Assembly: GCA_050290185.1 (NCBI GenBank)
Contig: JBNKHE010000001.1
Coordinates: 386,713 to 450,712, forward strand
From: Pontiella sp.
Lineage (GTDB): Bacteria > Verrucomicrobiota > Kiritimatiellia > Kiritimatiellales > Pontiellaceae
Reading direction: 5' to 3'
DNA: 64,000 nt
Each line of letters opens with the position of its first letter. Within the stretch, counting starts at the first letter, position 1. The notes beneath the pieces were generated by a model that worked only from the letters and a program-made list of their open reading frames with translations, did no database searches and was not told where the DNA came from. Of this stretch, positions 2,474-63,923 are shown piece after piece. Position numbers and translations under genes: made by a program.

Positions 2474-3577
2474 ATGGACACTGCTAACCTTTATGTGCAC
2501 ATCGGGACGCACAAGACTGGATCGACTGCGATTCAGAGCTTTCTTCGTCACCATCAGATGGAACTCAAGAGGAAGGGGTTGGTCTATATCTCTCTGCACG
2601 ATGGCTACGAAGCGCTAATGAAAGCCACACAGGTCGATGAGGATGTTGTTAATGGATTAAGGAAAAACCTGTCGTGCCAGATCGGCAAGAACTTTGCGCA
2701 AAGCAACGTTAGCTATGTGGCGAGCTGGGAAGGCTTTAGCGGAGATCCTGTTTCAGGTTACGATAATGCAGCATTCGTTGCGTCGCACCTAAAGAGATGC
2801 CTTGGTGATATCCCCGTAAAGATCATCGTCTACCTAAGACGTCAGGATAGCTTTCTCGGGTCATTGTACACGCAAAAAATCCACGAGGGGGAATCCTATA
2901 CCTTTGAGCATTTTTCCAACCTGATTCCTCCATTGGCGTTTGACTGGAGAAAGTTGCTGATGGCCTACAGCGACCAGTTCGGGAGAGGCAATATTGTTGT
3001 CAAAAGGTACGACAAAGCATATCTCCCGTCTTCTTTTAGCTTATTGAACGGGTTTTTCGAGATAATCGGTATTGATATTGAAGATATCCTTTCGTCAAAG
3101 AAGCCACCTAATCCCAACAAAGGATATTCAAGGGATGCGCTGGAAATTGCACGATTGTGCAATCCCGAACTTTCCGACCGCGATCAGAAGCGCTTGCGGC
3201 GTATTCTTCAAAAAACCAGCTCTAAACAACCGTTTGAAAAATATACCTACATGACAGGGGAAGACCGAATGGCCTTCATGAAACCATATGAGTCATCCAA
3301 CAAAGCCATAGCGGAACAATATCTTGATGATCCATCGGGCGAACTCTTTCCCACGCCATCTGCAACAACGATTGGCGCAACCCAGCATGAAATGGATACT
3401 GAAGCGATCATCCCCGAGCTGGTTTCAGCTCTTTTGTCCGATAACAGAAATCCTAGGGATACGCTCAAGCAGTTCCTGCAACATTCCTTGGGACCAGCGG
3501 TAAAGGGTCTCTATAGAAAATCCCCGGGTATCATGTATAAAATACGGGAAACGGCCCATAATTTAGGCTTTAAATAG
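2474..3577 (+). CDS. Sulfotransferase-like P-loop protein
   Basis: N-terminal LYVHIGTHKTGSTAIQ (5'-PSB-like loop) and IIVYLRRQDSFLGSLY (3'-PB-like motif); glycan locus context. Confidence 0.65.
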   Translation: MDTANLYVHIGTHKTGSTAIQSFLRHHQMELKRKGLVYISLHDGYEALMKATQVDEDVVNGLRKNLSCQIGKNFAQSNVSYVASWEGFSGDPVSGYDNAAFVASHLKRCLGDIPVKIIVYLRRQDSFLGSLYTQKIHEGESYTFEHFSNLIPPLAFDWRKLLMAYSDQFGRGNIVVKRYDKAYLPSSFSLLNGFFEIIGIDIEDILSSKKPPNPNKGYSRDALEIARLCNPELSDRDQKRLRRILQKTSSKQPFEKYTYMTGEDRMAFMKPYESSNKAIAEQYLDDPSGELFPTPSATTIGATQHEMDTEAIIPELVSALLSDNRNPRDTLKQFLQHSLGPAVKGLYRKSPGIMYKIRETAHNLGFK

Positions 3578-3725
3578 CTCATATTGGAAACAACTGACGG
3601 GGATGTTTCTGGAATCTCGAAGTGGATATTGGATCGACATTCCAGTAGATAGATGTCTGATTGAATATAGTTAGATAGCTGATGCCCGCAAGCGGGCTCA
3701 TATTAATTTGGGCAAAAAGGAACCC

Positions 3726-4586
3726 ATGACTTCCGAATACGTTTTACTGACCCTCAAATCCATCATGCGATACTTCAAATATCGTCGCATTCCAAAAGCC
3801 CAAGGCAAACGGGTCATTATTGCTGGAAATGGGCCATCTTTGAAGCAGGCGATTGACACTTATCCGGAAATTCTTGCGGAAACTCCGCTACTTTGCGTCA
3901 ATCACTTCGCAGACAGCCCAGACTTCGCAGTCTTAAAGCCAATGTACTACTGCATGCTGGATCCCAACTTTTTTCTGCCTAACCTCTCGTCCGAACGAGA
4001 AGACGGCAGGAATCGCACGTTCAACAATCTAACCAAATATACGACATGGGATATGCACCTATTCTTCCCATGCATACCTGGACAAATCGTTTTAGAAGAC
4101 TATCTCCGCTCCCCATACATTCACCTACATTCCTGCAATATATATCCGGGGTTTACGTGGCCCAAGATCCGCAACTTTGTCTACAAAACAGGAATATTCA
4201 TGCCACCACCCCAAAATGTTTTGATCGCAGCCATATTCGAAGCAATCAACATGGGATATAAAGAAATTTTTGTATTAGGTGCTGAACACTCTTGGACGGA
4301 ATCCATCGGGGTAGGAAACGACAATACGCTATACATACAAAATCGCCATTTTTCTGGTGTCGGCACAAAAAAACCAATGTACAAATCTGCCCCAAGAAAC
4401 ACAGAAACCTTCAAAGTTCACGAACTGCTCCATGCATTGAGCCGGACCTTTCGGTCTTATTGGTTCCTACGAGAATATGCCACATCTTGTGGCGCTGTTG
4501 TTTACAATTCTACGCCTGAATCGTATATTGACGCGTTTGACCGCAAATCGCTGGACGAGCTCTCGCATAGTAAGGATTCGCAATGA
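3726..4586 (+). CDS. GT42 (CstI/II)/Maf-DUF115-like nonulosonic-acid transferase
   Basis: Motifs VIIAGNGPSLK, LLCVNHF, YYCMLDP and MGYKEIFVLGAEH resemble Cst sialyltransferases. ATG 3726 follows an AAAGG RBS. Confidence 0.6.
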   Translation: MTSEYVLLTLKSIMRYFKYRRIPKAQGKRVIIAGNGPSLKQAIDTYPEILAETPLLCVNHFADSPDFAVLKPMYYCMLDPNFFLPNLSSEREDGRNRTFNNLTKYTTWDMHLFFPCIPGQIVLEDYLRSPYIHLHSCNIYPGFTWPKIRNFVYKTGIFMPPPQNVLIAAIFEAINMGYKEIFVLGAEHSWTESIGVGNDNTLYIQNRHFSGVGTKKPMYKSAPRNTETFKVHELLHALSRTFRSYWFLREYATSCGAVVYNSTPESYIDAFDRKSLDELSHSKDSQ

Positions 4587-5134
4587 AAATAGGTAAGATA
4601 GTCACGCTTATCCAACACGTTCATCGCCTGTATTCAGTAAAATCTGGGGTTAAGGTCGGGAAGCGTGTGCATATTGGCTTGTGGAGTGCATGCTGGTCTC
4701 CGGATGAGTTGATCATTGAGGACGATGTTTACATCGGCAATCTGTGCACCATCCAGGTCAACGGGCGGATCGGACGATACACCATGATAGCCAACAATGT
4801 TGGAATCATCGGAAAGTTGGATCATGACTTCAGGGAAATAGGAATGCCGATACGTTATGCAAAATGGATAGGAGACCGAAAACAGGGTGATGTCAGAAAG
4901 GACTCCGTAATCATTGGGGAAGATGTATGGGTTGGCTACGGGGCCATCATCCTCTCAGGAGTAACCATTGGCCGCGGAGCCATAGTCGCGGCTGGAAGCG
5001 TTGTCACCAAGAATGTTACCCCCTATGCCATCGTAGCCGGAGTTCCGGCAAAATCCATTGGCGACCGCTTCACTCCCGAAGAAATCGTCGAGCATGAAAT
5101 GAAGCTCTATTCAGAGCATTTCATCAATCGTTAA
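4583..5134 (+). CDS. Hexapeptide-repeat (left-handed beta-helix) acyl/O-acetyltransferase
   Basis: IGEDVWVGYGAIILSGVTIGRGAIVAAGSVVTKNVTPYAIVAGVPAK; ATGA overlap with the upstream gene. Confidence 0.85.
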   Translation: MKIGKIVTLIQHVHRLYSVKSGVKVGKRVHIGLWSACWSPDELIIEDDVYIGNLCTIQVNGRIGRYTMIANNVGIIGKLDHDFREIGMPIRYAKWIGDRKQGDVRKDSVIIGEDVWVGYGAIILSGVTIGRGAIVAAGSVVTKNVTPYAIVAGVPAKSIGDRFTPEEIVEHEMKLYSEHFINR

Positions 5135-5635: not shown

Positions 5636-6667
5636 TTAATGCTGCCCGTAAATATGCTCTCGCTTTAGCGGCGTTCCCGCTTTGAGACTGAACGCAGCGG
5701 TTTTTCCAAGAATCTGATCCAGATATTTGGGCGGCAATCCATGTCCCGGGCGGATAGATCGGACGTTCTCGGTCGTGAAATTCTCTCCAGCTTTCACATC
5801 CTTGACAATAAAGAGGGATCGGCGAAATAATCTGCCTCCTTCATCGCCAGGTGATCCTCCATACCGTACTTTACCCAATGCTTTCTCGACGTTCCGAACT
5901 GCATCCACCATTTCTTTAAATTCAGCTGGCTCCAGAGAAAAGGAGCTGTCTACACCGCCATCCGCTCTTGATAATGTGAAGTGTTTTTCAACTACTTCAG
6001 CCCCCAATGCGACCGCGGCCACGGGCATGGCAATGCCAAGCGTATGATCTGATATCCCCACCTTACAATTAAAAGTCTCCGCCATATCCGGAATAGTATT
6101 TAAATTTGCATCTTCCGGATCTGCAGGATAAGCACTCGTGCATTTCAGCAAGGTGATATCAGGACACCCCGCCCCCTGCAGGGCTTCAACGGCCTCTCGG
6201 ATCTCCTCTTTGGTAGCCATCCCTGTCGACATAATAACGGGCTTCTTCGTGCTTCCTATTTTTTTCAACAAAGGAGTATCTACCAACTCAAACGAAGCCA
6301 CTTTGTGCCGCGCAACCCCAAGCTTTTCCAGAAAATCAACGGCCGTAGCATCAAAAGGCGTTGAGAAGAGTTCCAATCCACAAGCTTCTGCTTCAGCTTT
6401 AAGTTCAGCATGCCACTCCCATGGAGTATAGGCTTCTTGATAAAGCTGGTACAGAGTCCTGTTTTTCCAAAGAGAATCTTTCCTGGTTAAAAAATATTCA
6501 TTTTTGCAGTCTATCGTCATCGTATCCGCCGTATAAGTCTGGAGTTTTACGGCATCAGCTCCAGTTCTAGATATAGCGCGAATAATCTCGATGGCCTTAT
6601 CAAGGCAGTGATCGTGATTCCCGGACATTTCCGCAATCACGTATGTTCTTCGCAAACAATTACTCAT
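5636..6667 (-). CDS. pseI: Pseudaminic acid synthase (NeuB family with SAF domain)
   Basis: IAEMSGNH, KLQTYTADTMT, AYTPWEWH, KVASFE, LLKCTSAYP, SDHTLG, EKHFTL, FRRSL, IRPGHGL. Confidence 0.92.
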   Translation of the reverse strand: MSNCLRRTYVIAEMSGNHDHCLDKAIEIIRAISRTGADAVKLQTYTADTMTIDCKNEYFLTRKDSLWKNRTLYQLYQEAYTPWEWHAELKAEAEACGLELFSTPFDATAVDFLEKLGVARHKVASFELVDTPLLKKIGSTKKPVIMSTGMATKEEIREAVEALQGAGCPDITLLKCTSAYPADPEDANLNTIPDMAETFNCKVGISDHTLGIAMPVAAVALGAEVVEKHFTLSRADGGVDSSFSLEPAEFKEMVDAVRNVEKALGKVRYGGSPGDEGGRLFRRSLFIVKDVKAGENFTTENVRSIRPGHGLPPKYLDQILGKTAAFSLKAGTPLKREHIYGQH

Positions 6668-6760
6668 ACCTAATCACCCTCATCTTACATCGCAGGCATC
6701 AGAAACAACGCATCAAGTGCAGTTCACCTTAATTTCCTATCATGAAACTCATTGGGCTGA

Positions 6761-7984
6761 TCAATAGATATACGTAGCGAAGATATCATCAATCACCTCG
6801 CCTCTTTTGATCAGCAAAAACTGTTCGTCTTTTTTCGATAAGATCGGTGGTTGCCCTTTAATGAAAGGAGGTTTGTACATGGGACTGTAGGCACCAACAT
6901 TACAGAACTCTAGATAATCCCCCGGTGCTATTTCACCATTGAAGTCCCATGATAGTACATCGTCATCGATGCATGTATATCCGGTGATATCACCATTCTT
7001 AACCTGGTAGCTATTGCCTTTGTGCATTTGAATTACCTTCATGCCAGGAAGGATGCGGGATCTACCTGTCGGTTTAATATTATGCAAACTTCCATTAGTC
7101 ACAACAAAAGCCTTATCCCCAATAAACTTCACATTGTTTACGGTGCAATAGAATTTCATTGTATCGGCCACAACCATGGTTCCGGGCTCAATGATCAGCT
7201 TAACATCCTGATCAGGGAAATCTTTGATCATTGTTGCACCGATCACCCTACTATATTCCTCGAAAGAAGGTACCTTTGCAGAGAACTGCCGCAGCAACTC
7301 AGGAGGCATTTTACCAAAGAATCCGCCCCCGACATCAATATACTCGCATGGATGCTCAGCAAACACTTTTTTTGCAAACGCTATGGTCTTTTGCGTTCTC
7401 TCCGCAAAACTTTCTAATGTCTTCGTTGCTGTCTGAAAGTGACAATGCACTCCAATCGGCTTGCAGCCTTTCAAACCGAAAAGTCGTTCGTAAGCTTTTC
7501 CGGCGGAATCATCCTCCGAGTTGAAACCAAACCTGGATGTTTTTTCGCCCTCCATGCTAAAGTTGATCCTGAGCGCACAACGAATCGATTCCCTAGGTGA
7601 AGCGGAGAGGTATTCTTCCAGTACGTCTATCTCATTATCCGAGTCGAAATGCACAATGGAGTTGTTCTCAAATGCCCGGAAAAGGATCTCACGTGATTTC
7701 ACAGGACCGTTGTAGATTATTTTCTCAGGTTTATATCCAACCCGAAGAGCATGCTCGTATTCCATTTCAGATACAACCTCAGCAAATGCCCCTTGGTCCA
7801 TGGCGAGCTTGCATATTCTGGGTATGTAATTCGTCTTGAATGAATAAGCTATACCAAAGTTTGCATACTGATTTTTGAATGCAGATTCAACCTCATCTAA
7901 GTTAGAGATGAATCTTTCCTCATCGAAAACATAGAATGACTCACCGTATCTCTTTTGTAGCTCACTAAGGATTTGATTATTCAT
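6761..7984 (-). CDS. PLP-dependent fold-type III decarboxylase (diaminopimelate decarboxylase/BtrK-like)
   Basis: YSFKTN (PLP Lys), YNGPVK, SRFG, HCH, DVGGGF, IEPG, GYTCIDDD, VGAY. Confidence 0.8.
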   Translation of the reverse strand: MNNQILSELQKRYGESFYVFDEERFISNLDEVESAFKNQYANFGIAYSFKTNYIPRICKLAMDQGAFAEVVSEMEYEHALRVGYKPEKIIYNGPVKSREILFRAFENNSIVHFDSDNEIDVLEEYLSASPRESIRCALRINFSMEGEKTSRFGFNSEDDSAGKAYERLFGLKGCKPIGVHCHFQTATKTLESFAERTQKTIAFAKKVFAEHPCEYIDVGGGFFGKMPPELLRQFSAKVPSFEEYSRVIGATMIKDFPDQDVKLIIEPGTMVVADTMKFYCTVNNVKFIGDKAFVVTNGSLHNIKPTGRSRILPGMKVIQMHKGNSYQVKNGDITGYTCIDDDVLSWDFNGEIAPGDYLEFCNVGAYSPMYKPPFIKGQPPILSKKDEQFLLIKRGEVIDDIFATYIY

Positions 7985-8936
7985 GCTTTCGATTTTCCCT
8001 AAGCTTTCCCATATGATCTTCTATTGCAGATATCTGATCCGAGGTTAACCGCAAAACATTGCCCAAGCGAAGATTCAGATCCTCTACACTTCTGTCATTT
8101 CTGCGCCACCGTCTTATTGAGGCCTTGTTTTCTATAGCGTTGATAGTCTTTTCGGGGGCAGAAACAAACTCTTCGTAACTGATGTTCAAATACCGTTCAT
8201 CGGGTAGCGCAGAAAGAGAGTCCTGAATATCCTTCTTTAGATAGAATACCTGTTCTGTAGATTGAAGAAGCGGATCTTCCTGTTTCATTATTTCTTCAAA
8301 GTTCGAAGGCTTAATGCCAAACCAATTTGAATGATTTCCGCTGTAGTTCTTGCGTGATTCGTAAGTTGATTGGACCACAAAAACATCATCCCTGTATATA
8401 TTCAAAAAAACTGCAGAAGGGAAAAGTGTGCTCAGGTTATTTATATTAGGTAGGACCTCAAGAAGGTTCTTGAATAACAATGGCTCATTGTTCACAGCCT
8501 GCCAGGCTGCAAAGTGTTTTTTAAGTAATCTAGCGTTCGCTGTTGTCAGAGAACAAGGCTTCGCATTGTTTGCTGAGCCCGGAAACCAGTGTCGCCAGAA
8601 ATAACTGAATTCATGAGGACCACCAATACCGCTTGTGGCACCAAAATTTGAGCTGAATGACATTTTTTCATCATTCACGCTCAGAGACTTCCCCAGAAGG
8701 GCTCCCAAATATGGCGCAAGCCAAAATCTGGCAATAAGATTGGAAGGGTACGATATCTTATAAAGAGAGACCAAGGCCTGTGTCAGGACAGTTGTGCCTG
8801 AACGCTGAGCACCAACAACGAATAAAATTGGATTTTCTGGACTTTCAAAATCACTGATCAAAGACTCCTCCACGCCAACAAGTCTTTCGTTCATCAGTGC
8901 CATGGCCTTTTCCAGAAGAGGATCTTTTTGCACCAT
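7977..8936 (-). CDS. Sulfotransferase family protein
   Basis: LFVVGAQRSGTTVL PAPS-binding loop; ISYEEFVSAPE. Confidence 0.8.
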   Translation of the reverse strand: MVQKDPLLEKAMALMNERLVGVEESLISDFESPENPILFVVGAQRSGTTVLTQALVSLYKISYPSNLIARFWLAPYLGALLGKSLSVNDEKMSFSSNFGATSGIGGPHEFSYFWRHWFPGSANNAKPCSLTTANARLLKKHFAAWQAVNNEPLLFKNLLEVLPNINNLSTLFPSAVFLNIYRDDVFVVQSTYESRKNYSGNHSNWFGIKPSNFEEIMKQEDPLLQSTEQVFYLKKDIQDSLSALPDERYLNISYEEFVSAPEKTINAIENKASIRRWRRNDRSVEDLNLRLGNVLRLTSDQISAIEDHMGKLRENRKHE

Positions 8937-8990
8937 ATATATTGCCTTCAGCTATGTATTATTACTTCGAATGTCAAATTAAACTCAGAC

Positions 8991-10031
8991 TCATCGTTCC
9001 AACAAAGCACTCACGAAATTTCCAATACCATCTACATTTATGGCTTCCTGTAGTTTTTCTGAGATCCCACGAAGATCTTTACTAATGCATTTGGTGATTC
9101 TATCAGCCAATCCACTACAAGCCATGCTTTTGGGATCCTCAATAAGCTGTGCCCATCCCAACTCATGGAGGTTCCTTGCACTTGCTGATTCTTTTTCCCC
9201 AGCTGGCAATACGATCACAGGAACGCCCAAGGAACCAAGCTCCCAAGTGGTTATTCCTCCGGAAGTGAATGCTAAATTGCTACTTAGCATTAGTGCATGC
9301 ATTCGTTTTGTGTTCTTGTGAAGCTCAATATTCAGGCTTGTTTTATCAATGAATTTATTCAGTTCTTCCTCAAATGGATACATCGCTCCGATAACAACTA
9401 TGACCTTTTCAAATTTTTTACTAATCAGGTCTAGCGCTTCCAGCACCTTTAACGTGAAGTTGTTGGGATCTGACCCACCAAATGTTAGTAAAGCAGTAAA
9501 AGCATTCTTAGCCTCCACCATAAAAGTATGTGCTTCCTTGGCCGTCGCTCTGAACTTCTCATCAAGGATAAGGTTCTGAAGCCCGAACAAACGTTTTGTA
9601 TACGGTTCTGTGCTCCATTCCAACGCTAGCGACAAAGGATTCTGATCATGGAGAATGTGCGTATAGTAATGTACATTATTATCAAAAACGATGTAGGCGA
9701 CCTTCTCAACCACCTTAAGCAGGTCTCTCTGAAACGTTTCATCATAAAAAATAGGTTGATAGCTATCGACAACCAATGCAGACCTACCTTTTCCTTCTAA
9801 TTCTCTACTAATGAACTCTACTTCAGGAAGGTTCCCATCGTTCATGACAACCTCGATACCTGATGCTTTTATTTCATCCCTAAAGTATTGAGGTAGTTCT
9901 GAGGAAAGGAAGCAAACCAATCCATTGTAAGACTTTGCCACTTCCCGGGCAATGATGAAGCATCTCCTCGCATGACCCATACCCATTACTACACTGGCAT
10001 CAGCTCTGAAAAATATTGAATCCGGGTGCAT
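8991..10031 (-). CDS. pseG: PseG/SpsG-like UDP-sugar hydrolase (GT-B fold)
   Basis: FRADASVVMGMGHARRC, LTFGGSDP, TSGGITTWELG; lies in the pse cluster. Confidence 0.75.
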   Translation of the reverse strand: MHPDSIFFRADASVVMGMGHARRCFIIAREVAKSYNGLVCFLSSELPQYFRDEIKASGIEVVMNDGNLPEVEFISRELEGKGRSALVVDSYQPIFYDETFQRDLLKVVEKVAYIVFDNNVHYYTHILHDQNPLSLALEWSTEPYTKRLFGLQNLILDEKFRATAKEAHTFMVEAKNAFTALLTFGGSDPNNFTLKVLEALDLISKKFEKVIVVIGAMYPFEEELNKFIDKTSLNIELHKNTKRMHALMLSSNLAFTSGGITTWELGSLGVPVIVLPAGEKESASARNLHELGWAQLIEDPKSMACSGLADRITKCISKDLRGISEKLQEAINVDGIGNFVSALLER

Positions 10032-10035
10032 TCGC

Positions 10036-11016
10036 TTAAATCGACAAATTATTTGGTATGTATTCTGTTACGGTTGAGTATCGAGACCAAATTTTTCCAC
10101 TATCGTGTTTTAACCAATCAACATCAGGTGCCCGATTGTTCCTCCAGGCCAGCAATGCAGCCGGGATATTCGCGCCCGCAGCAAGGCTAAAGATATGGGA
10201 TCCGCCAAATCTTACATTAAGGTCAATTACAAAATATTCTTCCTCACGCTTAATCACATCAACATCCATGCATCCCTGATGCCCTATTATTTCTGAAAGT
10301 TTTTTTGCAATGCTGTTTATCTCGGCATGATCGACTGTTTCCGCAATATCCGTTTCCCGAGTGCCCATGGAAATTCGCTTTCTGATAAGACTACACACAA
10401 AGTTGCCTTTCAGGTCGTTAATAACATCAATGCAATAGATATCGCCATCAATTGCAGGTTGCGCGATCCAATCATCTGAATATTCTTTCTCTTTGGCTAT
10501 TTCGATCAACGCTTGTACATCGTTAACTCTGAGCAATCCAAAGGATCCCCGGCCATGCCTTTTCTTTACGATATACTTACCTTCCTTGATGTCGTTTTTT
10601 TTAGTTAGTTCCTTAAGTGTGAAAGTATTCGGCACATTTATTCCATGACCTCCAAGAAATGATGTGTATGACTGCTTGTTCAATGCATTTTGGATCTTAT
10701 CCTTAGGTGCACCAACCAAATGACAGCCAACTTCTTTAAGCCGATCACGAAGGCCCTCAAGGACTAGAAGTTCATCTTCAAGAAGCGAGAACCACATCCC
10801 TATATTATGATCTCTGCTCACCTGTATCGCCCAATCACCATACTTCTTATCAGATAGGCACGGACTGATGATTGATCGATCAGCAGCAGTCATTGCAGCT
10901 GCATATGGATTCATATCGCTTGCCACTAGCTTTCCTTGATCACCTATAGCATTCCTGAAGGCTTCCATTAGCGGGAACTGTTTCCCTGCACACGATATCA
11001 TAACATTGTAGTTCAT
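10036..11016 (-). CDS. ATP-grasp ligase (CarB-like/PylC-like family found in glycan loci)
   Basis: YIVKKRHGRGS, WIAQPAIDG, MDVDVI, IDLNVRFGG ATP-grasp motifs. Confidence 0.8.
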   Translation of the reverse strand: MNYNVMISCAGKQFPLMEAFRNAIGDQGKLVASDMNPYAAAMTAADRSIISPCLSDKKYGDWAIQVSRDHNIGMWFSLLEDELLVLEGLRDRLKEVGCHLVGAPKDKIQNALNKQSYTSFLGGHGINVPNTFTLKELTKKNDIKEGKYIVKKRHGRGSFGLLRVNDVQALIEIAKEKEYSDDWIAQPAIDGDIYCIDVINDLKGNFVCSLIRKRISMGTRETDIAETVDHAEINSIAKKLSEIIGHQGCMDVDVIKREEEYFVIDLNVRFGGSHIFSLAAGANIPAALLAWRNNRAPDVDWLKHDSGKIWSRYSTVTEYIPNNLSI

Positions 11017-11036
11017 TCTCTGCTATTTCCTACGGT

Positions 11037-11720
11037 TTATAGCGCCAACGTTTTAAACATGAGCTCCGCCCGTATCCAGTCCTCTTCGGTATCTATATCT
11101 TGAGCAAGGTGACGGGGTAAAATAATTGGTGCCGCATCGCGGTATAGATCCGGCATTTCCAGAAATTCTTTGACGCGAGTCCAATATAACTGCCCGGCGT
11201 CATGGTAAAACTCGGGAAGGTCCTGCGAACGGGTCATCCGATATTCCGGCCATTTCATTTCCAGCACCCCGTCTTCATTGAGTTGCTGCGATCGGAGTAT
11301 AGGAAAGGGAAACGAGGTAACCGTAAACGCATTGACCACATCCTTTTCTTCTAGCAGACGATATCCTTCCTCAAGAAATGAAACCCGTACAAACGGAGCC
11401 GTTGCGTACATGCAGCACGCAAATCTATATGGCCTCCCCTCCGCAATCAGGAATTTCAGGGCATGCGCAAAAACAGCACCCGTCCCCGTAAAATCATCCG
11501 AGAGATCGGCGGCTCGCATGAAAGGTACCTCTGCACCATAGGTTCGTGCAACATCAGCAATTTCATTCGAATCGGTGGAAACAACGACTTGATCAAATAA
11601 CCCGGATTTCTTGGCTACCTCAATCGAGTATGCAATTATGGGCTTTCCGCAAAATTCGCGTATGTTCTTTTTCGGAATGCGTTTGCTCCCGCCTCGCGCG
11701 GGAATGATGCATACGTTCAT
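11037..11720 (-). CDS. pseF: CMP-pseudaminic acid synthetase (cytidylyltransferase)
   Basis: IIPARGGSKRIPKKNI, YATAPF, RSQDL, HDAGQLYW, DIDTEEDW. Confidence 0.92.
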   Translation of the reverse strand: MNVCIIPARGGSKRIPKKNIREFCGKPIIAYSIEVAKKSGLFDQVVVSTDSNEIADVARTYGAEVPFMRAADLSDDFTGTGAVFAHALKFLIAEGRPYRFACCMYATAPFVRVSFLEEGYRLLEEKDVVNAFTVTSFPFPILRSQQLNEDGVLEMKWPEYRMTRSQDLPEFYHDAGQLYWTRVKEFLEMPDLYRDAAPIILPRHLAQDIDTEEDWIRAELMFKTLAL

Positions 11721-12862
11721 GAAACCACCTCGTGCACAGCGTCAACAACCTGCGCCACATCACTATCACTCATAGCAGGGAAGAGCGGCAATGATAGACA
11801 ACCTTCATAGAAGGTCTCAGCATTTGGACACTTTCCGAAGGCATAGCCATATTTATTGCGGTAGTAGGATTGAAGATGAACTGGAATATAGTGCACCTGC
11901 GTACCGACTCCCCTCTCCATCAGATCCTTCATTACCTGAGCTCGGGATTTTCCAATGCTCGGGAAATCAATCTGCACAACGTAGAGATGCCACGCGACAC
12001 GGCCACCCGAAACGGAACAAGGAGTTTGCAGGTTGTTCAACGTCTGGAAAGCCGCATTATAGGAATCGACGATTGCCTGGCGCCGCGCAATGAATTCTTC
12101 GAGCCGCTTCAGCTGGGAACAGCCAAGTGCACATTGTAAATCCGTGATACGATAGTTGAAACCGGGTTGTTTCATTTCATAAAACCACGGTTCCTCCGGG
12201 CGATTGCGTTCCATGCCATGGCTCCGGAATACTCGGCAACGTTCCGCCAACGCATCGCTCTGGGTTAAAATTGCCCCGCCCTCACCAGTCGTAAGGGTCT
12301 TGACAGGATGAAAACTAAAGGTCGTCATGTCCGCCCATGGGTGTGAGCCCACGGAATAAACTTTACCGGTATGTTCGATCCGACTGCCCAATGCGTGGGC
12401 GGCATCTTCGATTATCATCCCTCCCCGAGCACGGGCAACTTCGGCAATCGCCGGCATATCGCATGGGCGACCTGCAAAATCGACGGCCACCACAGCCTTG
12501 GTATCGCCGGACCATGCCGCTTCCAGCGTCAAAGGTGAGATATTTTGGGTTTCCGGGTCGATGTCGACAAAGTCGGCAATCGCTCCAACATATTCAGCGC
12601 AGTTGGCTGATGCTAGAAAAGTATTAGGTGAAGTAATCACTCGGTCTCCCTCACCAATACCGGCAGCCAGCATTGCTACATGCAAGGCCGCCGTTCCATT
12701 CGAAACAGCAATGCAATGTCTGGCCCCCGTATAGTTGCACAGCTCGTTCTCGAAACGTTCAACTGATGGACCGCAAGTCAACCAATCGCCACGCAACACA
12801 TCCACAACGGCATGAATGTCATCTTCAGTGATTGATTGCCTTCCATAAGGGATTATTCTCAA
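11717..12862 (-). CDS. pseC: UDP-4-amino-4,6-dideoxy-N-acetyl-beta-L-altrosamine transaminase
   Basis: IPYGRQ, WLTCGP, SNGTAALH, EDAAHALG, FSFHPVKTLTTGEGG, GFNYRITD. TTG start at 12862 chosen for RBS spacing; the ORF extends to 12892. Confidence 0.92.
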   Translation of the reverse strand: MRIIPYGRQSITEDDIHAVVDVLRGDWLTCGPSVERFENELCNYTGARHCIAVSNGTAALHVAMLAAGIGEGDRVITSPNTFLASANCAEYVGAIADFVDIDPETQNISPLTLEAAWSGDTKAVVAVDFAGRPCDMPAIAEVARARGGMIIEDAAHALGSRIEHTGKVYSVGSHPWADMTTFSFHPVKTLTTGEGGAILTQSDALAERCRVFRSHGMERNRPEEPWFYEMKQPGFNYRITDLQCALGCSQLKRLEEFIARRQAIVDSYNAAFQTLNNLQTPCSVSGGRVAWHLYVVQIDFPSIGKSRAQVMKDLMERGVGTQVHYIPVHLQSYYRNKYGYAFGKCPNAETFYEGCLSLPLFPAMSDSDVAQVVDAVHEVVS

Positions 12863-12866
12863 TTCC

Positions 12867-13904
12867 TTACTCCGGGTTAAAGTCGACATCAACGTATGCT
12901 GCTATTTTTACCCTCAATGTTTCCACGGTCTCCCACTCTTCATTCTCTCCGGAATTGTAAGAGAAACCTTCTGGCACCTTAGTGCCGGAATGGTTCTTCA
13001 GGTAATCTTCCTCCGTATGTTTATATGAAACCGTGGGTAAAATTGCATAATATGGGCCAATATCGATGGTACTGAGCGAATCGGTCGAAGTAATCATCTC
13101 CTCATGCAATTTTTCACCCGGTCGGATGCCGACAACCTCAACCCTGCAATTCGGAGCTACAGCCTTGGCTACGTCAAGAATGCGATACGATGGGATTTTT
13201 GGGATGAAGATTTCACCTCCGAGATGATTCTTCAACGCGTAAAGTACAAGTGTAGCGCCTTCCTCCAGCGATATATTGAAACGAGTCATATTTTCATCGG
13301 TAATAGGTAACACGCCCTCCTTCCGCTTTTCCATGAAAAAGGGGATTACCGAGCCGCGCGATCCCATTACATTGCCATAGCGAACCACGCTGAATCGGAT
13401 ATGGTGCTTGCCGGCAATGTTGTTCGCCGCACAGAAGAGCTTGTCAGAAACCAGCTTTGTCGCTCCATACAGATTGATTGGTGCGCAAGCCTTGTCGGTT
13501 GACAGGGCAACAACACCTTTTACATCGGTGTCAAGACAGGCCTCGATCACGTTCTTGGCACCATCCACATTGGTCTTGATACACTCGCCCGGATTATATT
13601 CAGCGGTATCGACTTGTTTGACTGCTGCAGCATGAATTACATAGTCTACACCAACCATCGCACGCCGCAGACGAGCTGCGTCGCGTACATCGCCAATAAA
13701 GAAGCGTAGTCGTTTTTGCTCCTCCCCCGAATACTTCGACTTCAACATAAACTGCTTATACTCATCGCGACTGTAGATTACTATGGTGCCCACCCTGCTG
13801 TGGCGTAGAAGTATTTCCGTCAGCTTCTTCCCAAGCGAACCCGTCCCCCCGGTAATCAATACTCGAGCATTCGCCAACCATCCAAAATCCAAATCAGTGT
13901 CCAT
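12867..13904 (-). CDS. pseB: UDP-GlcNAc 4,6-dehydratase (inverting)
   Basis: ITGGTGSLG, YSRDEYKQ, HAAAVKQV, EYNP, LSTDKA, NLYGATKL, RYGNVMGSRGSV, GIRPGEKLHE. Confidence 0.95.
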   Translation of the reverse strand: MDTDLDFGWLANARVLITGGTGSLGKKLTEILLRHSRVGTIVIYSRDEYKQFMLKSKYSGEEQKRLRFFIGDVRDAARLRRAMVGVDYVIHAAAVKQVDTAEYNPGECIKTNVDGAKNVIEACLDTDVKGVVALSTDKACAPINLYGATKLVSDKLFCAANNIAGKHHIRFSVVRYGNVMGSRGSVIPFFMEKRKEGVLPITDENMTRFNISLEEGATLVLYALKNHLGGEIFIPKIPSYRILDVAKAVAPNCRVEVVGIRPGEKLHEEMITSTDSLSTIDIGPYYAILPTVSYKHTEEDYLKNHSGTKVPEGFSYNSGENEEWETVETLRVKIAAYVDVDFNPE

Positions 13905-13969: not shown

Positions 13970-15223
13970 TTATGTTTTAAACTTTAACCGAAACATCACT
14001 GCGAGCCCGACAATCAGAGCACCAGCATTGCACCCACCAAAAACAGCCACTAATTGCCATGAATTCCCATGGAAAAACATCGCTGCGGCAAGATACAAGA
14101 CGGCAAAGGGCACGATGGCGAAAGCGGAGAGAAAGCGATGCTGTGCCACCAAGAACTGAAGGATTACATTCGACAAGGCCGTGGTGCCCATGATCAGCGA
14201 CATGATTCGGATCATTTGCTCGAGATAACTGGATACCTCGCGGATGCCGAACAATATCCTGGCAAGCAGTGAGGCGAAAATGCAACATCCCAACACCGAC
14301 ACCAATACAAACAAAGCAGTATATCCAAAAGATCGAAAGAAAACCTTTAACTGATGTTCATTAATACTATTGCGGGAAGCCACCTTAGGGAACATGGCAG
14401 CCACTATCGCTCCAGGAAGAAAAACCACCATGCGACTCAGCGTTGCCGCATAGGCAAACTCTGTATCTTGAGGCACATAGTGCTTGATCAGGACCACATC
14501 GGCGGTCATTAAGACAACATAGGCCGCCTGAATAAGAAAGCTTTGCAGTAAGTAAAACCGCATGCTGGGCAGCGGAAGATTACTGGTCTGGGTGCCACGC
14601 AATGCAATGATAAGCCCTAGAACTAAAACACCGCTTGCCATATAAATCCCCAAGCCATGGCCCAGCATGGCCCAGCCGCAGGCCGGGTAGAGAAACCAAA
14701 CAAAACCAGCACCCAACCCCAAACGGGTCAGGGCTCCGGATATATTTGCAGCCGAACTCCATCGGAACAGCTGCAAACCCTGGACAGAGCCTCCAAGCAC
14801 CGGAATAGCAAACAACGCAGGAAGGACGGCCCCCATAACCACAACGGGGGCGACACGCTCCAGATGGAAAAAGTGCGCCAATGACGAGTTGAATATTAAC
14901 ACCAGCATCCCTAATAAAAGTGATGGTCCACCTGTAAGAAGCAACCACTTGCGTAGAAGTCGTTTTATGTCGCCTTCTCTGTCTTCCTGTCGAAGAATGC
15001 TGCTGTAGTAGCTCAAGCCGCTGCGTAATGTACCCAAGGGGCGCTGAATCATGGCAAGCACGCCGAGGAAGGCTGCTACCAGCACATATTCATCCTTGGG
15101 AAGAGCGCGGCCGATAGCCATTTGAAACAAGATGTTGCTGATATGGACAACGATCATTCCTGAAAAAAGAATCGCAGAATGGCGTATCAGCTCATCCGAT
15201 TTAATGGATTTCCATATCTTCAT
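13970..15223 (-). CDS. Oligosaccharide flippase (Wzx/MOP family)
   Basis: About 12 hydrophobic segments, DVVLIKH...YAATLSR pattern, glycan locus context. Confidence 0.75.
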   Translation of the reverse strand: MKIWKSIKSDELIRHSAILFSGMIVVHISNILFQMAIGRALPKDEYVLVAAFLGVLAMIQRPLGTLRSGLSYYSSILRQEDREGDIKRLLRKWLLLTGGPSLLLGMLVLIFNSSLAHFFHLERVAPVVVMGAVLPALFAIPVLGGSVQGLQLFRWSSAANISGALTRLGLGAGFVWFLYPACGWAMLGHGLGIYMASGVLVLGLIIALRGTQTSNLPLPSMRFYLLQSFLIQAAYVVLMTADVVLIKHYVPQDTEFAYAATLSRMVVFLPGAIVAAMFPKVASRNSINEHQLKVFFRSFGYTALFVLVSVLGCCIFASLLARILFGIREVSSYLEQMIRIMSLIMGTTALSNVILQFLVAQHRFLSAFAIVPFAVLYLAAAMFFHGNSWQLVAVFGGCNAGALIVGLAVMFRLKFKT

Positions 15224-15978
15224 CTATGTAGCCGTTTCTGGATTCGATTATATAGCACGACTACACACCGGAAGGGGGAATACACCAAGCGGAGCCGTAT
15301 CAATGCCAACGTCATGTCGGCAGAGGCTTTCGCCACGCGTATCTTCGATCCTGCGGCATCACGCCAAACCGTTGGAATTTCAATAATCTTGTATCCACTC
15401 AAACGGACATGGAAAAGCATGTCTACATCGAACGCCCAGCGCGTGATGCCCAAATCGGGGAGGATTTTTTCAACAACTTCTTTTTTGAAAAGCTTGGCGC
15501 CGCACTGGGTGTCGTGGACGCGAAAACCGAAGAACAGGTTGACCATGAAGTTGAATATGCGAGAGGCGATCCTACGCGATAACGGTTGCTTTGGTTCAAC
15601 GATCGAACCCTTTATCCAACGCGAAGCGATGATACACCCAGCGCCGCCTATGTTATCCACCAGATCGCAAAATGCCTCTGGGGAGGTTGAACCATCCGCA
15701 TCCACGAATCCCACAAGATTACCTTGGGCCTCGCGGAATCCCAGCATCACCGCCCCGCCCTTGCCCACTCGGTGCGGTTCATTGATTACGGATACAACGG
15801 GATGTTTTTTCGCAAACTGATCGGTCACCTGAAAGGTGTTGTCGGTTGAACCATTCACCACCACGATGATTTCCACATCCTGCCCAAATTTACCGGCATA
15901 GTAATGCGTATAGGACTCCAGCACGGGAGGTAGACGCTGTTCTTCGTTATGGGCGGGAATGATGATCGAAAGTTTCAC
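15220..15978 (-). CDS. GT2 polyprenol/dolichyl-phosphate glycosyltransferase (DPG/DPM synthase-like)
   Basis: LSIIIPAHNEE, GKGGAV, FVDADGS, DTQCGAKLF, WAFDVD. Confidence 0.85.
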   Translation of the reverse strand: MKLSIIIPAHNEEQRLPPVLESYTHYYAGKFGQDVEIIVVVNGSTDNTFQVTDQFAKKHPVVSVINEPHRVGKGGAVMLGFREAQGNLVGFVDADGSTSPEAFCDLVDNIGGAGCIIASRWIKGSIVEPKQPLSRRIASRIFNFMVNLFFGFRVHDTQCGAKLFKKEVVEKILPDLGITRWAFDVDMLFHVRLSGYKIIEIPTVWRDAAGSKIRVAKASADMTLALIRLRLVYSPFRCVVVLYNRIQKRLHR

Positions 15979-17492
15979 TCGGCATCCTTCTGCTTGTAGA
16001 TCACCAGATCGGTGTGCGCCTGACCGAAATGGGGGAAGTCAGCAACCTCGTCGTAACGCTCTCGAAGTTGATTCGAGAACAGGGTCGTATCTTCTTCCCC
16101 CACCTCCGCGATAGCCGGCGATTCGATGGCCAGGCCGTAGCCGCTGAAAGCCGCGATCGGCGCATCGGAATTGGCGAGGGTTTCAAGCAACATATCCTTG
16201 TTGAGCAGGTGCAGTTTTTCGGCCTGCTCGCGCGGCAGGTCGGGGTAGTAGCAGAAGGGACCCATTTCCATCCCGGCAGAAACTTTCCGGTTGGCCTCGA
16301 CGGCTAGATAGATATCCTGTGTCAGCAACGTGCTGCCCTCCGGGCTGTTGGCTCGTACGAGATCGGCGGCTTCACGCAGGAAGGCCAGATCACTCTTGTC
16401 CTTGAATTTCCACCAAATACGGTCGCGGCCGCGCACAAACCAGTCCTGATTAATCGGCGAAGAGAACGCGGAAGCCACGGAAACCAGCAGAAGAAAAGCA
16501 AGCGCGGAAATCTGCCACTGATCCTGGATGCGGGGCACCAACGTCAAAACGAGTGCCGCCGCCAGAACCGGATAGGCAATCACCTGGTAGTCATCGTACG
16601 GGAAGGCCGCAATGAAATGGACCAGCGACATCCCGATGCCGCAGGCCCACAGCAATAGCGCATATGAATTCCGCGTGCATGGTTTCGGCCGCCAGCAGAG
16701 CGAAGCAACGGTGAGCACCGTGAACACAAAATAGGCCTGCACAAAACGCGATATGAAGCCCATCTTCAGAACCAGCAAGGCCTTTAGCCCACCGGGGTCC
16801 CGCCCGGCATGGTAGCCAAATAGCCCGAAACAGGTCTGATCGAAGGCAGTAACAAAGAAAGGGACAAATACAGCGAGCAACGTCAATCCGCCACCGATGC
16901 CGAACCATACCCAGTGCCAGCGGCGTTCGCGCTGGAAGATCAGCCAGATCCCGGCAATCGGCAAAACAATGCCGGCCGACAAACGTGTTCCTGCGGCCAG
17001 AGCCATGAACACCCCCGCCAACAGCGATCCGAGCCCGTTCCGGTAGGTCAGGGCAAAAAAACCGCACATAAGCCAGAACGAGCACAAACCATAGGTTTTT
17101 ACCACGGTGGTAAAATAACTCTGGTATACATTGCACCCCACCAGCATCCATACCGCCAGACAAGCGAAAACCTTGTTTCGGTCGACCATCCGTGCCACTG
17201 CGGCCGCCGCCAGCAGCCCCGAAAACAGGCCGAACCAAGTGGTGATTAAACGCCCTCCGGCGATGCCTAGCATATCAACAACAGAATGGAAAAGCCGATA
17301 GATGAAGGGAAGTACGGGGCCTTGCGTAAAAGCAAAATCGGCATAGGGCTTCGCGCCCTCTCCAACCATTCGGGCAGCATACAAATACCATCCCTCATCC
17401 TGGTTCAGGTTACCGTAGATCAGGTTTAGCGCGGCCAGCAGCACCACGCAAATCGCGGTACAGACCTCCAGAACTACAAAATATCTCTTCAT
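15975..17492 (-). CDS. GT-C-type membrane glycosyltransferase (ArnT/PMT-like)
   Basis: NQDEGWY after the first TM helix, KPYADF..QGP, more than 10 TM segments. ATG 17492 lies just downstream of the gtrA-like stop. Confidence 0.65.
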   Translation of the reverse strand: MKRYFVVLEVCTAICVVLLAALNLIYGNLNQDEGWYLYAARMVGEGAKPYADFAFTQGPVLPFIYRLFHSVVDMLGIAGGRLITTWFGLFSGLLAAAAVARMVDRNKVFACLAVWMLVGCNVYQSYFTTVVKTYGLCSFWLMCGFFALTYRNGLGSLLAGVFMALAAGTRLSAGIVLPIAGIWLIFQRERRWHWVWFGIGGGLTLLAVFVPFFVTAFDQTCFGLFGYHAGRDPGGLKALLVLKMGFISRFVQAYFVFTVLTVASLCWRPKPCTRNSYALLLWACGIGMSLVHFIAAFPYDDYQVIAYPVLAAALVLTLVPRIQDQWQISALAFLLLVSVASAFSSPINQDWFVRGRDRIWWKFKDKSDLAFLREAADLVRANSPEGSTLLTQDIYLAVEANRKVSAGMEMGPFCYYPDLPREQAEKLHLLNKDMLLETLANSDAPIAAFSGYGLAIESPAIAEVGEEDTTLFSNQLRERYDEVADFPHFGQAHTDLVIYKQKDAE

Positions 17493-17505
17493 TCCCGCCA
17501 AGGCA

Positions 17506-18018
17506 TCATCCTTTGAATACGAATCGTTTTCGCAGGGTGAAGTTTGCAACCATTGCCAATGCGAATACAAAGAAATAACTCCACGAAACATCCCAACCCA
17601 AGCGTCCGATCAAAATCCGGCTAACCCAGGTGAACACCACGAATGAAATCGTGGAAAGCAGATAGAAAAGACCCACTTCCTTTTTCCGTTGGTGCCGGCC
17701 TCCAGAAAAGACGAACAGCGCGTTGGTCACGTAGGCGACGGTATTCGAAGCCACGAAGGCCCCGATCTTGCTGATGACAAAGTTCCGCAACAGCACCTGT
17801 TCCGGTACCGCCCCGATCTCCCAGCCGAAAATCCCGATCACCAGTCCGAATGGATCGCCGGGCCTGAGGCAGGGAAAAATCAACCACGCCATGATATAGA
17901 ACACAGCCACATCCACCACGAAAGTGATGCCCCCGCAGAATAAATACCTGATGAACTGCAGGTGCAAATGCCCTTTATCGTTCAACATCCCTGTCAGCTT
18001 GGTTGTCCAGTTTTTCAT
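17506..18018 (-). CDS. GtrA-family small membrane protein (lipid-sugar flippase-like)
   Basis: QFIRYLFCGG..F.VD, AYVTNALFVF, NFTLRKRFVF; about 4 TM segments. Confidence 0.8.
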   Translation of the reverse strand: MKNWTTKLTGMLNDKGHLHLQFIRYLFCGGITFVVDVAVFYIMAWLIFPCLRPGDPFGLVIGIFGWEIGAVPEQVLLRNFVISKIGAFVASNTVAYVTNALFVFSGGRHQRKKEVGLFYLLSTISFVVFTWVSRILIGRLGWDVSWSYFFVFALAMVANFTLRKRFVFKG

Positions 18019-18191
18019 AACAGTTAGAGAGGTTCATATTCTCCTACACGTGGAACCAATGCGAGTATTTTCGCCCCGTCATCACAGGTTGGACAGTCGG
18101 AGAACACCCCAACGAAGCATAGGGAGGAAACTTGACCTCAAGGCTGTTTAATCTATGCTGTTGATTCATTTTGCAAACAGAGGGGTTTACC

Positions 18192-21632: not shown

Positions 21633-21642
21633 GCTTTTTCCT

Positions 21643-22758
21643 GTGAAGATTGTTGTATACGACGACAACCCCGATTTCGGCGGCCACCAAGCCATGGCCG
21701 TCCACGGGGTTGAGGCGCTCGCAGCCGACCCATCGATCGAAACCGTCTTCCTATTCAACCCCGAAAACCGGCAACTCATCGATAAACTCGCCGGAATCAA
21801 GACCTGCCAGACACTCGAATCCCCCTGCGCGACCCGCCGGACGCAAGGCATTAGAAACCGCATTGATCGACAAGGCATCCACGAGCTCCAACGCATCTTC
21901 GGCACGCTTAAAGCCGATCTGGTTCTCTGCCTCCAGGGGGACATCGAACAATCCTCGCAAGCTGTCATCGCCGCCCGCCGCGCCGGGATCGAATGCATCA
22001 GCTACATCGCTCTGCCCCATCGCTCGGCGACCATGGGCGCTAAGCTGGGAAAACTACGCGATCGAGCCAATCAATTCCTGCTAAACCAGCCCACGCGTTA
22101 CATCACCATCAGCGAAAGCATGGCCAAACGCCTTCAGGAGCGCGGCACGAACAAACCCATAACTATCGTCCCCAACGGCATCAACATTCCCAAAACTCCA
22201 CGTGCTTACGACCTCACGACTCACAACTCACCCGTCACGCTGGGGCTATTGGGGCGGGTTGAATTCAACCAAAAGCAGCAGAATTTCATGCTGCAGACCT
22301 TTTGCGACTTTCAGCAGGCATTCGAAAACTGCCGTCTCGTCATCGTAGGCGACGGCCCCGATTGGAACCAACTCGAACAACTCATTGCCAAATGCCCGCG
22401 CAAAGACGACATTGACCTCCTTCCTTGGCAGAAAGACACCGAGACCGTTTTCGCCTCCATCGATCTACTGGTAATTCCCTCCCGCTACGAAGGCGTCCCG
22501 CTCGTCATGCTCGAAGCGCTCGCCCGCGGGATTCCCGTCATCGGCAGCAACCGCGACGGCATGCGCGACATCCTTCCCGAAAGCTGGACCTTCGAAACGG
22601 AAAACGCCACCGCATTGGCCGAAACCTTTTCGCGCGTCCGCGACACATGGCAAAACGCCATCATTCCCCTCCGCGATAAAATCGTGAAAGAACACTCGCT
22701 CGAAACCTTCAAGGCCAGCTTCCACCAAACGGTATTGGACCGAAACCCTGCCTCATAG
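21643..22758 (+). CDS. Glycosyltransferase family 4
   Basis: FGGHQ, IVPNGI, IVGDGPD, PSRYEGVPLVMLEALARG. Confidence 0.9.
   Translation: MKIVVYDDNPDFGGHQAMAVHGVEALAADPSIETVFLFNPENRQLIDKLAGIKTCQTLESPCATRRTQGIRNRIDRQGIHELQRIFGTLKADLVLCLQGDIEQSSQAVIAARRAGIECISYIALPHRSATMGAKLGKLRDRANQFLLNQPTRYITISESMAKRLQERGTNKPITIVPNGINIPKTPRAYDLTTHNSPVTLGLLGRVEFNQKQQNFMLQTFCDFQQAFENCRLVIVGDGPDWNQLEQLIAKCPRKDDIDLLPWQKDTETVFASIDLLVIPSRYEGVPLVMLEALARGIPVIGSNRDGMRDILPESWTFETENATALAETFSRVRDTWQNAIIPLRDKIVKEHSLETFKASFHQTVLDRNPAS

Positions 22759-63068: not shown

Positions 63069-63923
<855 letters not shown>

Follow-up and report, generated by a model that had tools for sequence, protein, structure and literature searches.

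Pseudaminic acid (Pse) is produced in its canonical form, CMP-Pse5Ac7Ac, by PseB, PseC, PseH, PseG, PseI and PseF, the first two of which yield UDP-4-amino-4,6-dideoxy-beta-L-AltNAc. We analysed a 64,000-nucleotide stretch of Pontiella sp. DNA (assembly GCA_050290185.1, contig JBNKHE010000001.1, positions 386,713–450,712 of the forward strand; hereafter the window) with a Pse operon that lacks pseH and contains an ATP-grasp ligase, a divergent pseG, a sulfotransferase and a fold-type III pyridoxal 5′-phosphate (PLP) decarboxylase. Among described systems, Neisseria PglB2 with ORF8 employs an ATP-grasp enzyme instead of the N4-acetyltransferase of a 4-amino-6-deoxy UDP-HexNAc. Passages of PMC11130364 present PglB2 as an ATP grasp/phosphoglycosyltransferase, mutually exclusive with the acetyltransferase form PglB and giving a glyceramido-acetamido-trideoxyhexose (GATDH), and HAD and formyltransferase genes are noted in PglB2-type loci in a portion of PMC6959607. 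The butirosin (BtrI/BtrJ/BtrK), closthioamide (CtaD/E/F) and fluvirucin (FlvN/L/O) systems combine side-chain activation of Asp or Glu with alpha-decarboxylation by a PLP enzyme; according to sections of PMC11350588, such enzymes convert side-chain-tethered Asp or Glu to beta-alanine or 4-aminobutyrate (GABA), always on an acyl carrier protein (ACP).

Amino- and hydroxy-acid amides on the amines in question are known from Pse5Am7Gra, Leg5Ac7Ala, Leg5GluNMe7Ac and Qui4N(Ac-D-Asp), and aspart-4-yl amides on 4-amino-6-deoxy sugars are listed in part of PMC10609480, whereas no omega-aminoacyl or N-sulfo group was found reported for non-acetyl Pse or legionaminic acid (Leg). PseI is reported to accept varied C7 amides (PMC13576459). 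Excerpts of PMC5378307 describe the C7 glyceroyl genes as unidentified and the genes for nonulosonic N-acyl substitutions as largely unknown and a major challenge. No description of a Pse pathway with an ATP-grasp enzyme and a decarboxylase was found in our literature search, with subscription papers and supplements outside its scope, and the portions consulted of PMC8157484, the SugarBase preprint, PMC13317340, PMC7685785, PMC12374273 and PMC5560731 hold no description of this gene set.

All eight open reading frames (ORFs) of the operon lie on the minus strand; reading from position 13904 down to 5636, they are pseB, pseC, pseF, ATP-grasp, pseG, sulfotransferase, decarboxylase and pseI (Table 1). 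ORF positions and family assignments agree with the order given by an earlier, sequence-only reading of this DNA. As in the canonical pathway, PseB, PseC, PseF and PseI score above curated cut-offs and PseG, itself below its cut-off, retains GxGH; unlike in that pathway, PseH is missing and a divergent PseG appears to have been transferred together with the ligase, sulfotransferase and decarboxylase. The pseB gene is a native member of the operon, the sulfotransferase gene and the decarboxylase start overlap by 8 bases, and the source genome has only one NeuB-family synthase; promoter and terminator scanning gave results at chance level. We propose, with a probability of roughly 0.55, that the four-gene cassette replaces N7-acetylation with a carrier-free, ATP-driven N-acylation leaving a beta-alanyl or 4-aminobutyryl group, probably sulfated, on the chemistry expected of the ligase, PLP enzyme and sulfotransferase.

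Sequence comparison suggests that four genes (ligase, pseG, sulfotransferase, decarboxylase) move together as one cassette, located in the PseH/PseG slot, because their guanine-cytosine (GC) content is lower, PseG is swapped in a same-genus locus, and PseG stays close in a distant genome where the remaining proteins are at background. GC is 0.420–0.426 in the four genes (0.420 for both the ligase gene and pseG), 0.47–0.51 in pseB/C/F/I and 0.54 in the genome. The same-genus locus L234 is 81%, 76%, 59% and 66% identical to the window in PseB, PseC, PseF and PseI and only 27% in PseG, its slot holding an unrelated PseG followed by a formyltransferase-like gene. Genome G149 (distantly related; C78) carries the identical eight-gene order between wzz-like and wzx-like genes. 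Its PseB (64%), PseC (42%), PseF (46%) and PseI (56%) are within the range of 20 control loci of its order, and its PseG is 50% identical to that of the window, compared with 22–28% for controls of that order and 22–32% for control PseGs; the ligase, sulfotransferase and decarboxylase share 52%, 58% and 62%. G149 PseG passes the TIGR03590 cut-off (172.4 bits), no PseH above cut-off was found in this genome, and neither a GNAT nor a hexapeptide gene lies beside its cassette. G149 was found through the order of another locus: of 283 genomes searched there, 3 matched the decarboxylase profile very strongly, and one of these matches lies in a Pse locus. That PseG moves with the ligase suggests that the modification precedes the PseG step and takes place on the UDP-sugar; the sequence-only reading, which linked the ligase to the decarboxylase, overlooked that PseG and the sulfotransferase share the same moving cassette.

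In the window PseG, G17-x-G19-H20 is invariant. Its relatives in a protein collection form nine clusters at 40–60% identity, followed by a drop to ≤30%, and all nine are tied to a close ligase or decarboxylase by longest-contig fingerprint, not by locus reading; the nearest sulfotransferase cluster shows three matching longest-contig fingerprints. NCBI accessions place the decarboxylase and PseG of Aliifodinibius sp. S!AR15-10 two apart, and the ligase and decarboxylase of Ectothiorhodospira variabilis three apart, in both cases with the spacing of the window. Among 301 genomes of the phylum, only the source genome (G000) has this PseG at E ≤ 1e-40, and scans of viral contigs with the ligase and PseG alignments confirmed nothing.

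Forty PseI loci above cut-off, picked for flank length, served as controls (20 of 31 from the order of genome G041 and 20 of 26 from the class of the window). PseG was absent from the stretch in 5 of the 40. The 35 loci with PseG and PseI contained a GNAT (16), a formyltransferase (7), a carbamoyltransferase (6), an ATP-grasp enzyme without GNAT or formyltransferase (5) or an unclear gene (1), so that 34 of them hold a candidate acylating enzyme in the slot. The slot is thus nearly always occupied in this way; in the window, only the ligase and the sulfotransferase are in-cassette candidates. The decarboxylase occurs in none of the 40 control loci.

Two other arrangements were seen in Pse loci. 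The control loci L238, L241 and L242, as well as L224, combine a PRK12767-type ligase with a HAD phosphatase, the first three without a GNAT or formyltransferase; by analogy with PglB2/ORF8, these may be genes for N7-glyceroyl Pse. L214–L217, L221 and L222 carry a NodU-type carbamoyltransferase (~560 aa) after pseG and no GNAT, which suggests an N7-carbamoyl Pse variant in these six loci.

We consider it probable, from its slot, its co-transfer and the PglB2 precedent, that the ligase is the N-acylase of the C4 amine. Its best NCBIfam match is PRK12767.1-3 (202.6 bits, below the cut-off of 316), and K114, K151, N267 and R269 are invariant (alignment A2). The model (predicted local distance difference test score, pLDDT, 93) is closest in fold to the uncharacterised 2pn1, then to the L-amino-acid ligase 3vot, with PylC among the next matches. 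A pglB2-type arrangement occurs in 4 of 401 searched genomes (L258–L261), with a ligase of PF21360/PF02655 and PRK12767.1-4 type, and judging by this gene order the window ligase and PglB2 likely belong to the same broad family. As in PglB2-type N-acylation, the PF21360/PF02655 ligase of the window stands in an acetyltransferase slot beside a DegT aminotransferase. The Neisseria system differs in its acceptor, bacillosamine instead of an L-altro nonulosonate precursor, and in its partners: the window has a PLP decarboxylase and a sulfotransferase and no HAD phosphatase, and its ligase is unfused, belongs to another subclade and bears an acidic signature.

In a tree of 84 rows (quick search, 12 distant or duplicate rows dropped), the ligase falls within a 99%-supported clade of 70 rows, mostly decarboxylase- or PALP-paired, and all nine HAD-paired ligases fall outside it. 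Of 12 cassette ligases, 11 have D223, 12 have D251 and 12 have D253; among 49 decarboxylase-paired ligases the corresponding counts are 46, 46 and 48. HAD-paired ligases have mostly S, T and Q at these positions, from which we infer that the acidic residues may provide room for an amine-bearing donor. A PALP-paired member, L252 (plasmid NZ_LR890610.1, 1992–9945), contains rmlB, rmlA, wzx-like, vioA-like, GNAT, PALP enzyme, ligase and glycosyltransferase genes. Were the PALP enzyme a racemase, loci of this type (also L251, L246 and L247) would match Qui4N(N-acetyl-D-aspart-4-yl); the literature gave no confirmation of this.

The second unusual enzyme is predicted, from residues and fold, to be a fold-type III PLP decarboxylase, with substrate and activity likewise predicted. 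K50, H182, G219–G221, E266-P-G, C338, D342 and Y366 are invariant in the alignment; the model (pLDDT 92) reaches template modelling (TM) scores of 0.82–0.85 to diaminopimelate decarboxylase (DAPDC), FslC and BtrK. Its family profile ranks the N-citrylornithine decarboxylase FslC (7kh2, 2.6e-62) first in the PDB, followed by DAPDC (8.7e-49) and BtrK (3.7e-43). FslC shares the SRFG and C-M/I-x-x-D motifs; it differs in being 24% identical to the window enzyme (which scores 111.8 against a cut-off of 500 on the FslC-type NCBIfam model), in retaining the ELGR Arg and in its siderophore context. In DAPDC, the Glu after the catalytic Cys binds the distal amine. The window enzyme has C-I-D where DAPDC has C-E, and the hydrophobic residue in place of this Glu suits a substrate that lacks a free distal amine; together with the proximity of the profile to FslC, whose substrate is an amino acid acylated on its side chain, we count this in favour of a side-chain-tethered substrate. 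A housekeeping LysA role was rejected (155.8 bits against 297.9, with EPGT and CIDDD motifs instead of EPGR and C-E-x-x-D). Nor is this the sole LysA of the genome (the sequence-only reading had named a sole housekeeping LysA as fatal to its proposal): a better one lies on C13 (286.5 bits, slightly below the TIGR01048 cut-off of 297.9), next to ORFs that we take, from their N-termini, to be dapA/dapB-like, and SpeA is present on C1.

The decarboxylase family comprises 1,088 proteins at E ≤ 0.001, possibly including other fold-III enzymes, and the 15 sequences nearest to the window enzyme group together with 99% support (FastTree, 67 rows). No decarboxylase above 31% identity was found among 40 relatives. 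A single-protein scan of the genome contig collection gave no match, whereas an alignment scan did; plasmids and E. coli genomes gave no match to the decarboxylase, and the ESM Atlas returned generic family names only. From the alignment scan we took the best 80 of 579 and the best 80 of 495 confirmed candidates, 155 of these 160 loci having a usable decarboxylase ORF. Partners were a PRK12767-type ligase (49), a class IV aminotransferase/HpcH aldolase (45), another ATP-grasp enzyme (21), a GNAT (8), a RibA-type set (7) or none (25, of which 23 have short flanks), and in none of the loci did ligase and aminotransferase/aldolase partners lie together within 2.5 kb. The 32 ligase-paired loci with full flanks have, within 8 kb, a DegT aminotransferase in 20, a PglC-like transferase in 13 and a hexapeptide gene in 11 cases.

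Two loci are, judging by their sequences, separate cases of the ligase/decarboxylase pair in an acylase slot. L159 contains, in this order, LegB-like, LegC-like, decarboxylase, ligase, NeuB (above cut-off), NeuC-like and NeuA-like genes, with no acetyltransferase seen in 20.6 kb; L110, a short contig, has in sequence PseF-like, PseG-like, methylase-like, another ATP-grasp, decarboxylase and PseI genes. The "like" labels in both are presumptive, resting on similarity or on N-termini. A more distant decarboxylase–sulfotransferase–ligase trio is present in L183. Co-occurrence of the pair, which the sequence-only reading had suggested examining in pseH-less clusters, is seen in G149, which has no PseH above cut-off, and in L159, where no acetyltransferase was seen.

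Loci of another kind (L040, L100, L112, L117, L122, L150, L174 and others; 45 of 155) combine the decarboxylase with a class IV aminotransferase, HpcH aldolase, PglC and often PglF, and no ligase; in L113 the aminotransferase/aldolase/PglC set is apparently fused. We speculate that aldol addition to a 4-keto sugar, transamination and decarboxylation could give a 4-C-aminoethyl branched sugar. A distinct decarboxylase clade (L048, L053, L055, L056, L065, L070, L071) occurs with a RibA–RibD fusion, a WD40 protein, GT8 and unknown proteins. In the cyanobacterial polysaccharide loci L024, L037, L072, L074 and L077, decarboxylase and ligase adjoin a ~1,550-aa formyltransferase–AMP-binding–luciferase-like–carrier protein.

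In the sulfotransferase, R45-S46-G47-x-T49, R182 and S190 are conserved in 57 aligned sequences, and we presume the customary roles for these motifs; no PDB relative was found at E ≤ 0.01. Homologues of cysNC, cysD and cysQ are present on C3 of the source genome, and cysN/D/C/Q-like genes lie upstream of the G149 cassette. The window also has a 367-aa ORF without Pfam match (2474–3577, plus strand), whose N-terminal HIGTHKTGST presumably resembles a sulfotransferase P-loop, so that a second sulfation enzyme may exist.

In the proposed route, the ligase would form an acyl phosphate and amidate the C4 amine of the PseC product, the donor most likely being Asp or Glu presented through its side-chain carboxyl. 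The PLP enzyme would strip the alpha-carboxyl, acting either on the ligated residue or, prior to ligation, on the amino acid itself (giving beta-alanine or GABA), and an omega-aminoacyl group, beta-alanyl or 4-aminobutyryl, would be left at the future N7. The sulfotransferase may then sulfate the new terminal amine or a hydroxyl, the co-transferred PseG would detach UDP from the enlarged sugar, and CMP-Pse5Ac7(acyl) would be completed by PseI and PseF, both native. The tolerance of PseI for C7 amides fits the retention of the native PseI while PseG was exchanged. By analogy, the system would work like PglB2 joined to BtrK-type trimming, as a member of neither. Of the acylation by ligase and decarboxylase put forward in the sequence-only reading, comparison supports a ligase in the PseH slot, accompanied by a decarboxylase and without a carrier in the cluster; it does not extend to the donor amino acid or the order of ligation and decarboxylation. 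The BtrJ/BtrK precedent cited there stands as far as the presence of a ligase and a fold-III decarboxylase goes; an ACP and a transacylase are lacking. Neisseria PglB2 is the closer model.

Several points weigh against this proposal. On the enzyme side, Foldseek gives no separation of FslC, BtrK and DAPDC for the decarboxylase model, and the family lacks the EPGR Arg (T269 here). The decarboxylase family is not bound to ligases (aminotransferase/aldolase in 45 and RibA-type sets in 7 of 155 loci), and 12 of the 32 full-flank ligase-paired loci have no DegT aminotransferase within 8 kb, while 11 of 32 do have a hexapeptide gene. A carrier lies near 7 of 49 ligase-paired loci (2 with an ACP-like ORF, 5 with a nonribosomal peptide synthetase (NRPS)-like protein containing a carrier domain), and in L043 the decarboxylase, ligase and sulfotransferase genes stand without any recognised sugar-pathway gene close by. 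The ligase tree sample was itself chosen through the decarboxylase. Only one other complete cassette, that of G149, was read as DNA; by longest-contig fingerprint only 6 of 14 close decarboxylase clusters tie to a PseG, and the PseG protein-collection search gave no match for the Ectothiorhodospira pair. Finally, no beta-alanyl or aminobutyryl nonulosonate was found in the literature search.

Among other explanations, the ligase could acylate the C4 amine with a donor other than Asp or Glu (some different amino acid, a hydroxy acid or a phospho-acid), and the PLP enzyme could be a racemase or act on another metabolite. PglB2 yields a glyceroyl group, PLP enzymes of the PALP family also occur as partners within this ligase clade (L246, L247, L251, L252), and the lost EPGR Arg would fit as well. 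We nevertheless regard such a donor as unlikely, since the K50/H182/C338/D342/Y366 set of the decarboxylase is fully invariant, the cassette has no HAD phosphatase and the acidic signature of the ligase is absent from HAD-paired ligases.

We give little credence to a scheme in which the C4 amine receives a sulfamate cap from the sulfotransferase, and the ligase amidates the carboxylate of a sugar (at Pse C1 or in a uronic acid) with an amine produced by the decarboxylase, along the lines of the Campylobacter capsule amidation route. The sulfotransferase does belong to the cassette and is coupled to the decarboxylase, whose family often lacks a ligase, and the near relatives FslC and PylC (by profile and domain) presumably work on Orn/Lys side-chain amides. 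Yet L159 and L110 have decarboxylase and ligase in the acylase slot without a sulfotransferase, five control Pse loci have an ATP-grasp enzyme and no GNAT or formyltransferase, PglB2 acylates an amine, and the first 22 kb of the window show no uronic-acid pathway.

There is also a slim chance that the product is ordinary Pse5Ac7Ac, N-acetylated by the hexapeptide protein encoded near the operon (Table 1) or by an unlinked or unassembled GNAT, while ligase and decarboxylase decorate something else. The sequence-only reading reported neither a GNAT PseH nor a PseG–GNAT fusion, and the Pfam/NCBIfam domain assignments agree on both. The genome search for pseH that it proposed gave nothing above cut-off: the best match to the TIGR03585 model in the source genome scored 33.4 bits against 93.1, in an assembly that is 95.5% complete, and ten PseH-type GNAT domains of control Pse loci found no tblastn match there at E ≤ 1e-3. 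Of four PF13302 GNAT matches in the source genome, three lie among non-glycan genes and one is cut by the start of a 602-base contig, which leaves some room for an acetylase, as does the incomplete assembly. Hexapeptide N-acetyltransferases of the PglD type act on related amino sugars. A hexapeptide gene 31% identical to that of the window lies between pseG and pseI in L225, and G149 has another ~5 kb upstream of pseB; the latter, however, belongs to a DegT/Gfo dehydrogenase set, and the gene of the window is on the strand opposite to the operon and coupled to a transferase gene. The same cassette without an adjoining hexapeptide gene in G149 further weakens the substitution for PseH that the sequence-only reading offered as its alternative, and we consider an O-acetyltransferase more likely; the closest relative by score (L208; 34%, 73.6 bits) stands in a locus that also has a GNAT. 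Ordinary acetylation would moreover leave the joint exchange of PseG and ligase unexplained.

A butirosin-like route with a carrier in trans (the ligase loading Glu or Asp on an ACP, the decarboxylase trimming it and the acyl group then moving to the sugar) is very improbable: BtrJ/BtrK, CtaD/CtaF and FlvN/FlvO do use ACP-bound Asp or Glu, a carrier or carrier domain lies near 7 of 49 related loci and the source genome has three PF00550 proteins, but these lie >170 kb away, with none in the window (as the sequence-only reading had it), neither cassette has a carrier or transacylase, 42 of 49 related loci show no carrier, and PglB2 is described without one. The cassette also differs from these ACP systems in its predicted acceptor, a UDP-amino sugar, and membership of the butirosin system was rejected, as the cluster has no dedicated ACP or transacylase.

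An extended form of the carrier-free proposal is tentative, and we are doubtful of it as a whole. It holds that a ligate–decarboxylate–N-sulfate line on the UDP-amino sugar leads to Pse with N-sulfo-beta-alanyl or N-sulfo-4-aminobutyryl at N7, and that this is one of a series of plug-in N-acyl cassettes (GNAT, formyl, carbamoyl, ligase plus phosphatase, ligase plus decarboxylase) swapping into nonulosonate operons together with a matched PseG, the N7 group being readable from the ligase partner.

Table 1. Features of the Pse operon and adjoining genes in the window
Feature	Coordinates	Strand	Supporting match
pseB, UDP-GlcNAc 4,6-dehydratase (inverting), 345 aa	12867..13904	-	TIGR03589, 504.8 bits (cut-off 407.75)
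pseC, aminotransferase for the C4 amine (future N7), 391 aa	11717..12892	-	TIGR03588, 477.1 bits (cut-off 423.5)
pseF, CMP-Pse synthetase, 227 aa	11037..11720	-	TIGR03584, 314.3 bits (cut-off 205.7)
Cassette gene 1, PRK12767-type ATP-grasp ligase, 326 aa, predicted N4-acylating enzyme	10036..11016	-	PF21360 PylC-like_N and PF02655
Cassette gene 2, divergent PseG UDP-sugar hydrolase, 346 aa	8991..10031	-	TIGR03590, 135.8 bits (cut-off 153.55)
Cassette gene 3, 3′-phosphoadenosine 5′-phosphosulfate (PAPS)-type sulfotransferase, 319 aa	7977..8936	-	PF13469, 61.8 bits
Cassette gene 4, fold-type III PLP decarboxylase, 407 aa, uncharacterised glycan-locus subfamily	6761..7984	-	PF02784
pseI, pseudaminic acid synthase, 343 aa	5636..6667	-	TIGR03586, 490.5 bits (cut-off 340.25)
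Probable nonulosonate transferase (MptE-like/Maf family), convergent on the pse operon, function inferred	3708..4586	+	PF01973, 26.2 bits, below cut-off
Hexapeptide acyltransferase	4583..5134	+	PF00132; 4-base overlap with 3708..4586

The probable transferase begins with a CstII-like IIAGNGPSLK and weakly matches the sialyltransferase 2drj (E 0.32); a 33% homologue follows pseI in L213. Other glycan genes flank the operon (13970–22758 and 2–2137): a flippase-like membrane protein, GT2, PMT-like, GtrA, a TMEM260-like protein O-mannosyltransferase with TPRs, and GT4. Neither Wzy nor Wzz was recognised among the glycan genes beside the pse genes, and the Pse acceptor may therefore be a protein-linked or lipid-linked glycan. 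Further away (40239–63923) lie what we take, from their N-termini, to be genes for molybdopterin and for nitrate/nitrite uptake and reduction, with a presumably nifH-like gene at 63099.

If the carrier-free acylation holds, two families that are widespread and mis-annotated would gain a function: the PRK12767 ligases, labelled "carbamoyl-phosphate-synthase-like", and the "diaminopimelate decarboxylases" of glycan loci. Exact masses could then be predicted for an undescribed Pse derivative and tested by liquid chromatography–mass spectrometry (LC-MS), and possible enzymes for amine-handled Pse analogues would become available. The N7 substituent of a given Pse could also be deduced, by a general rule, from the genes present.

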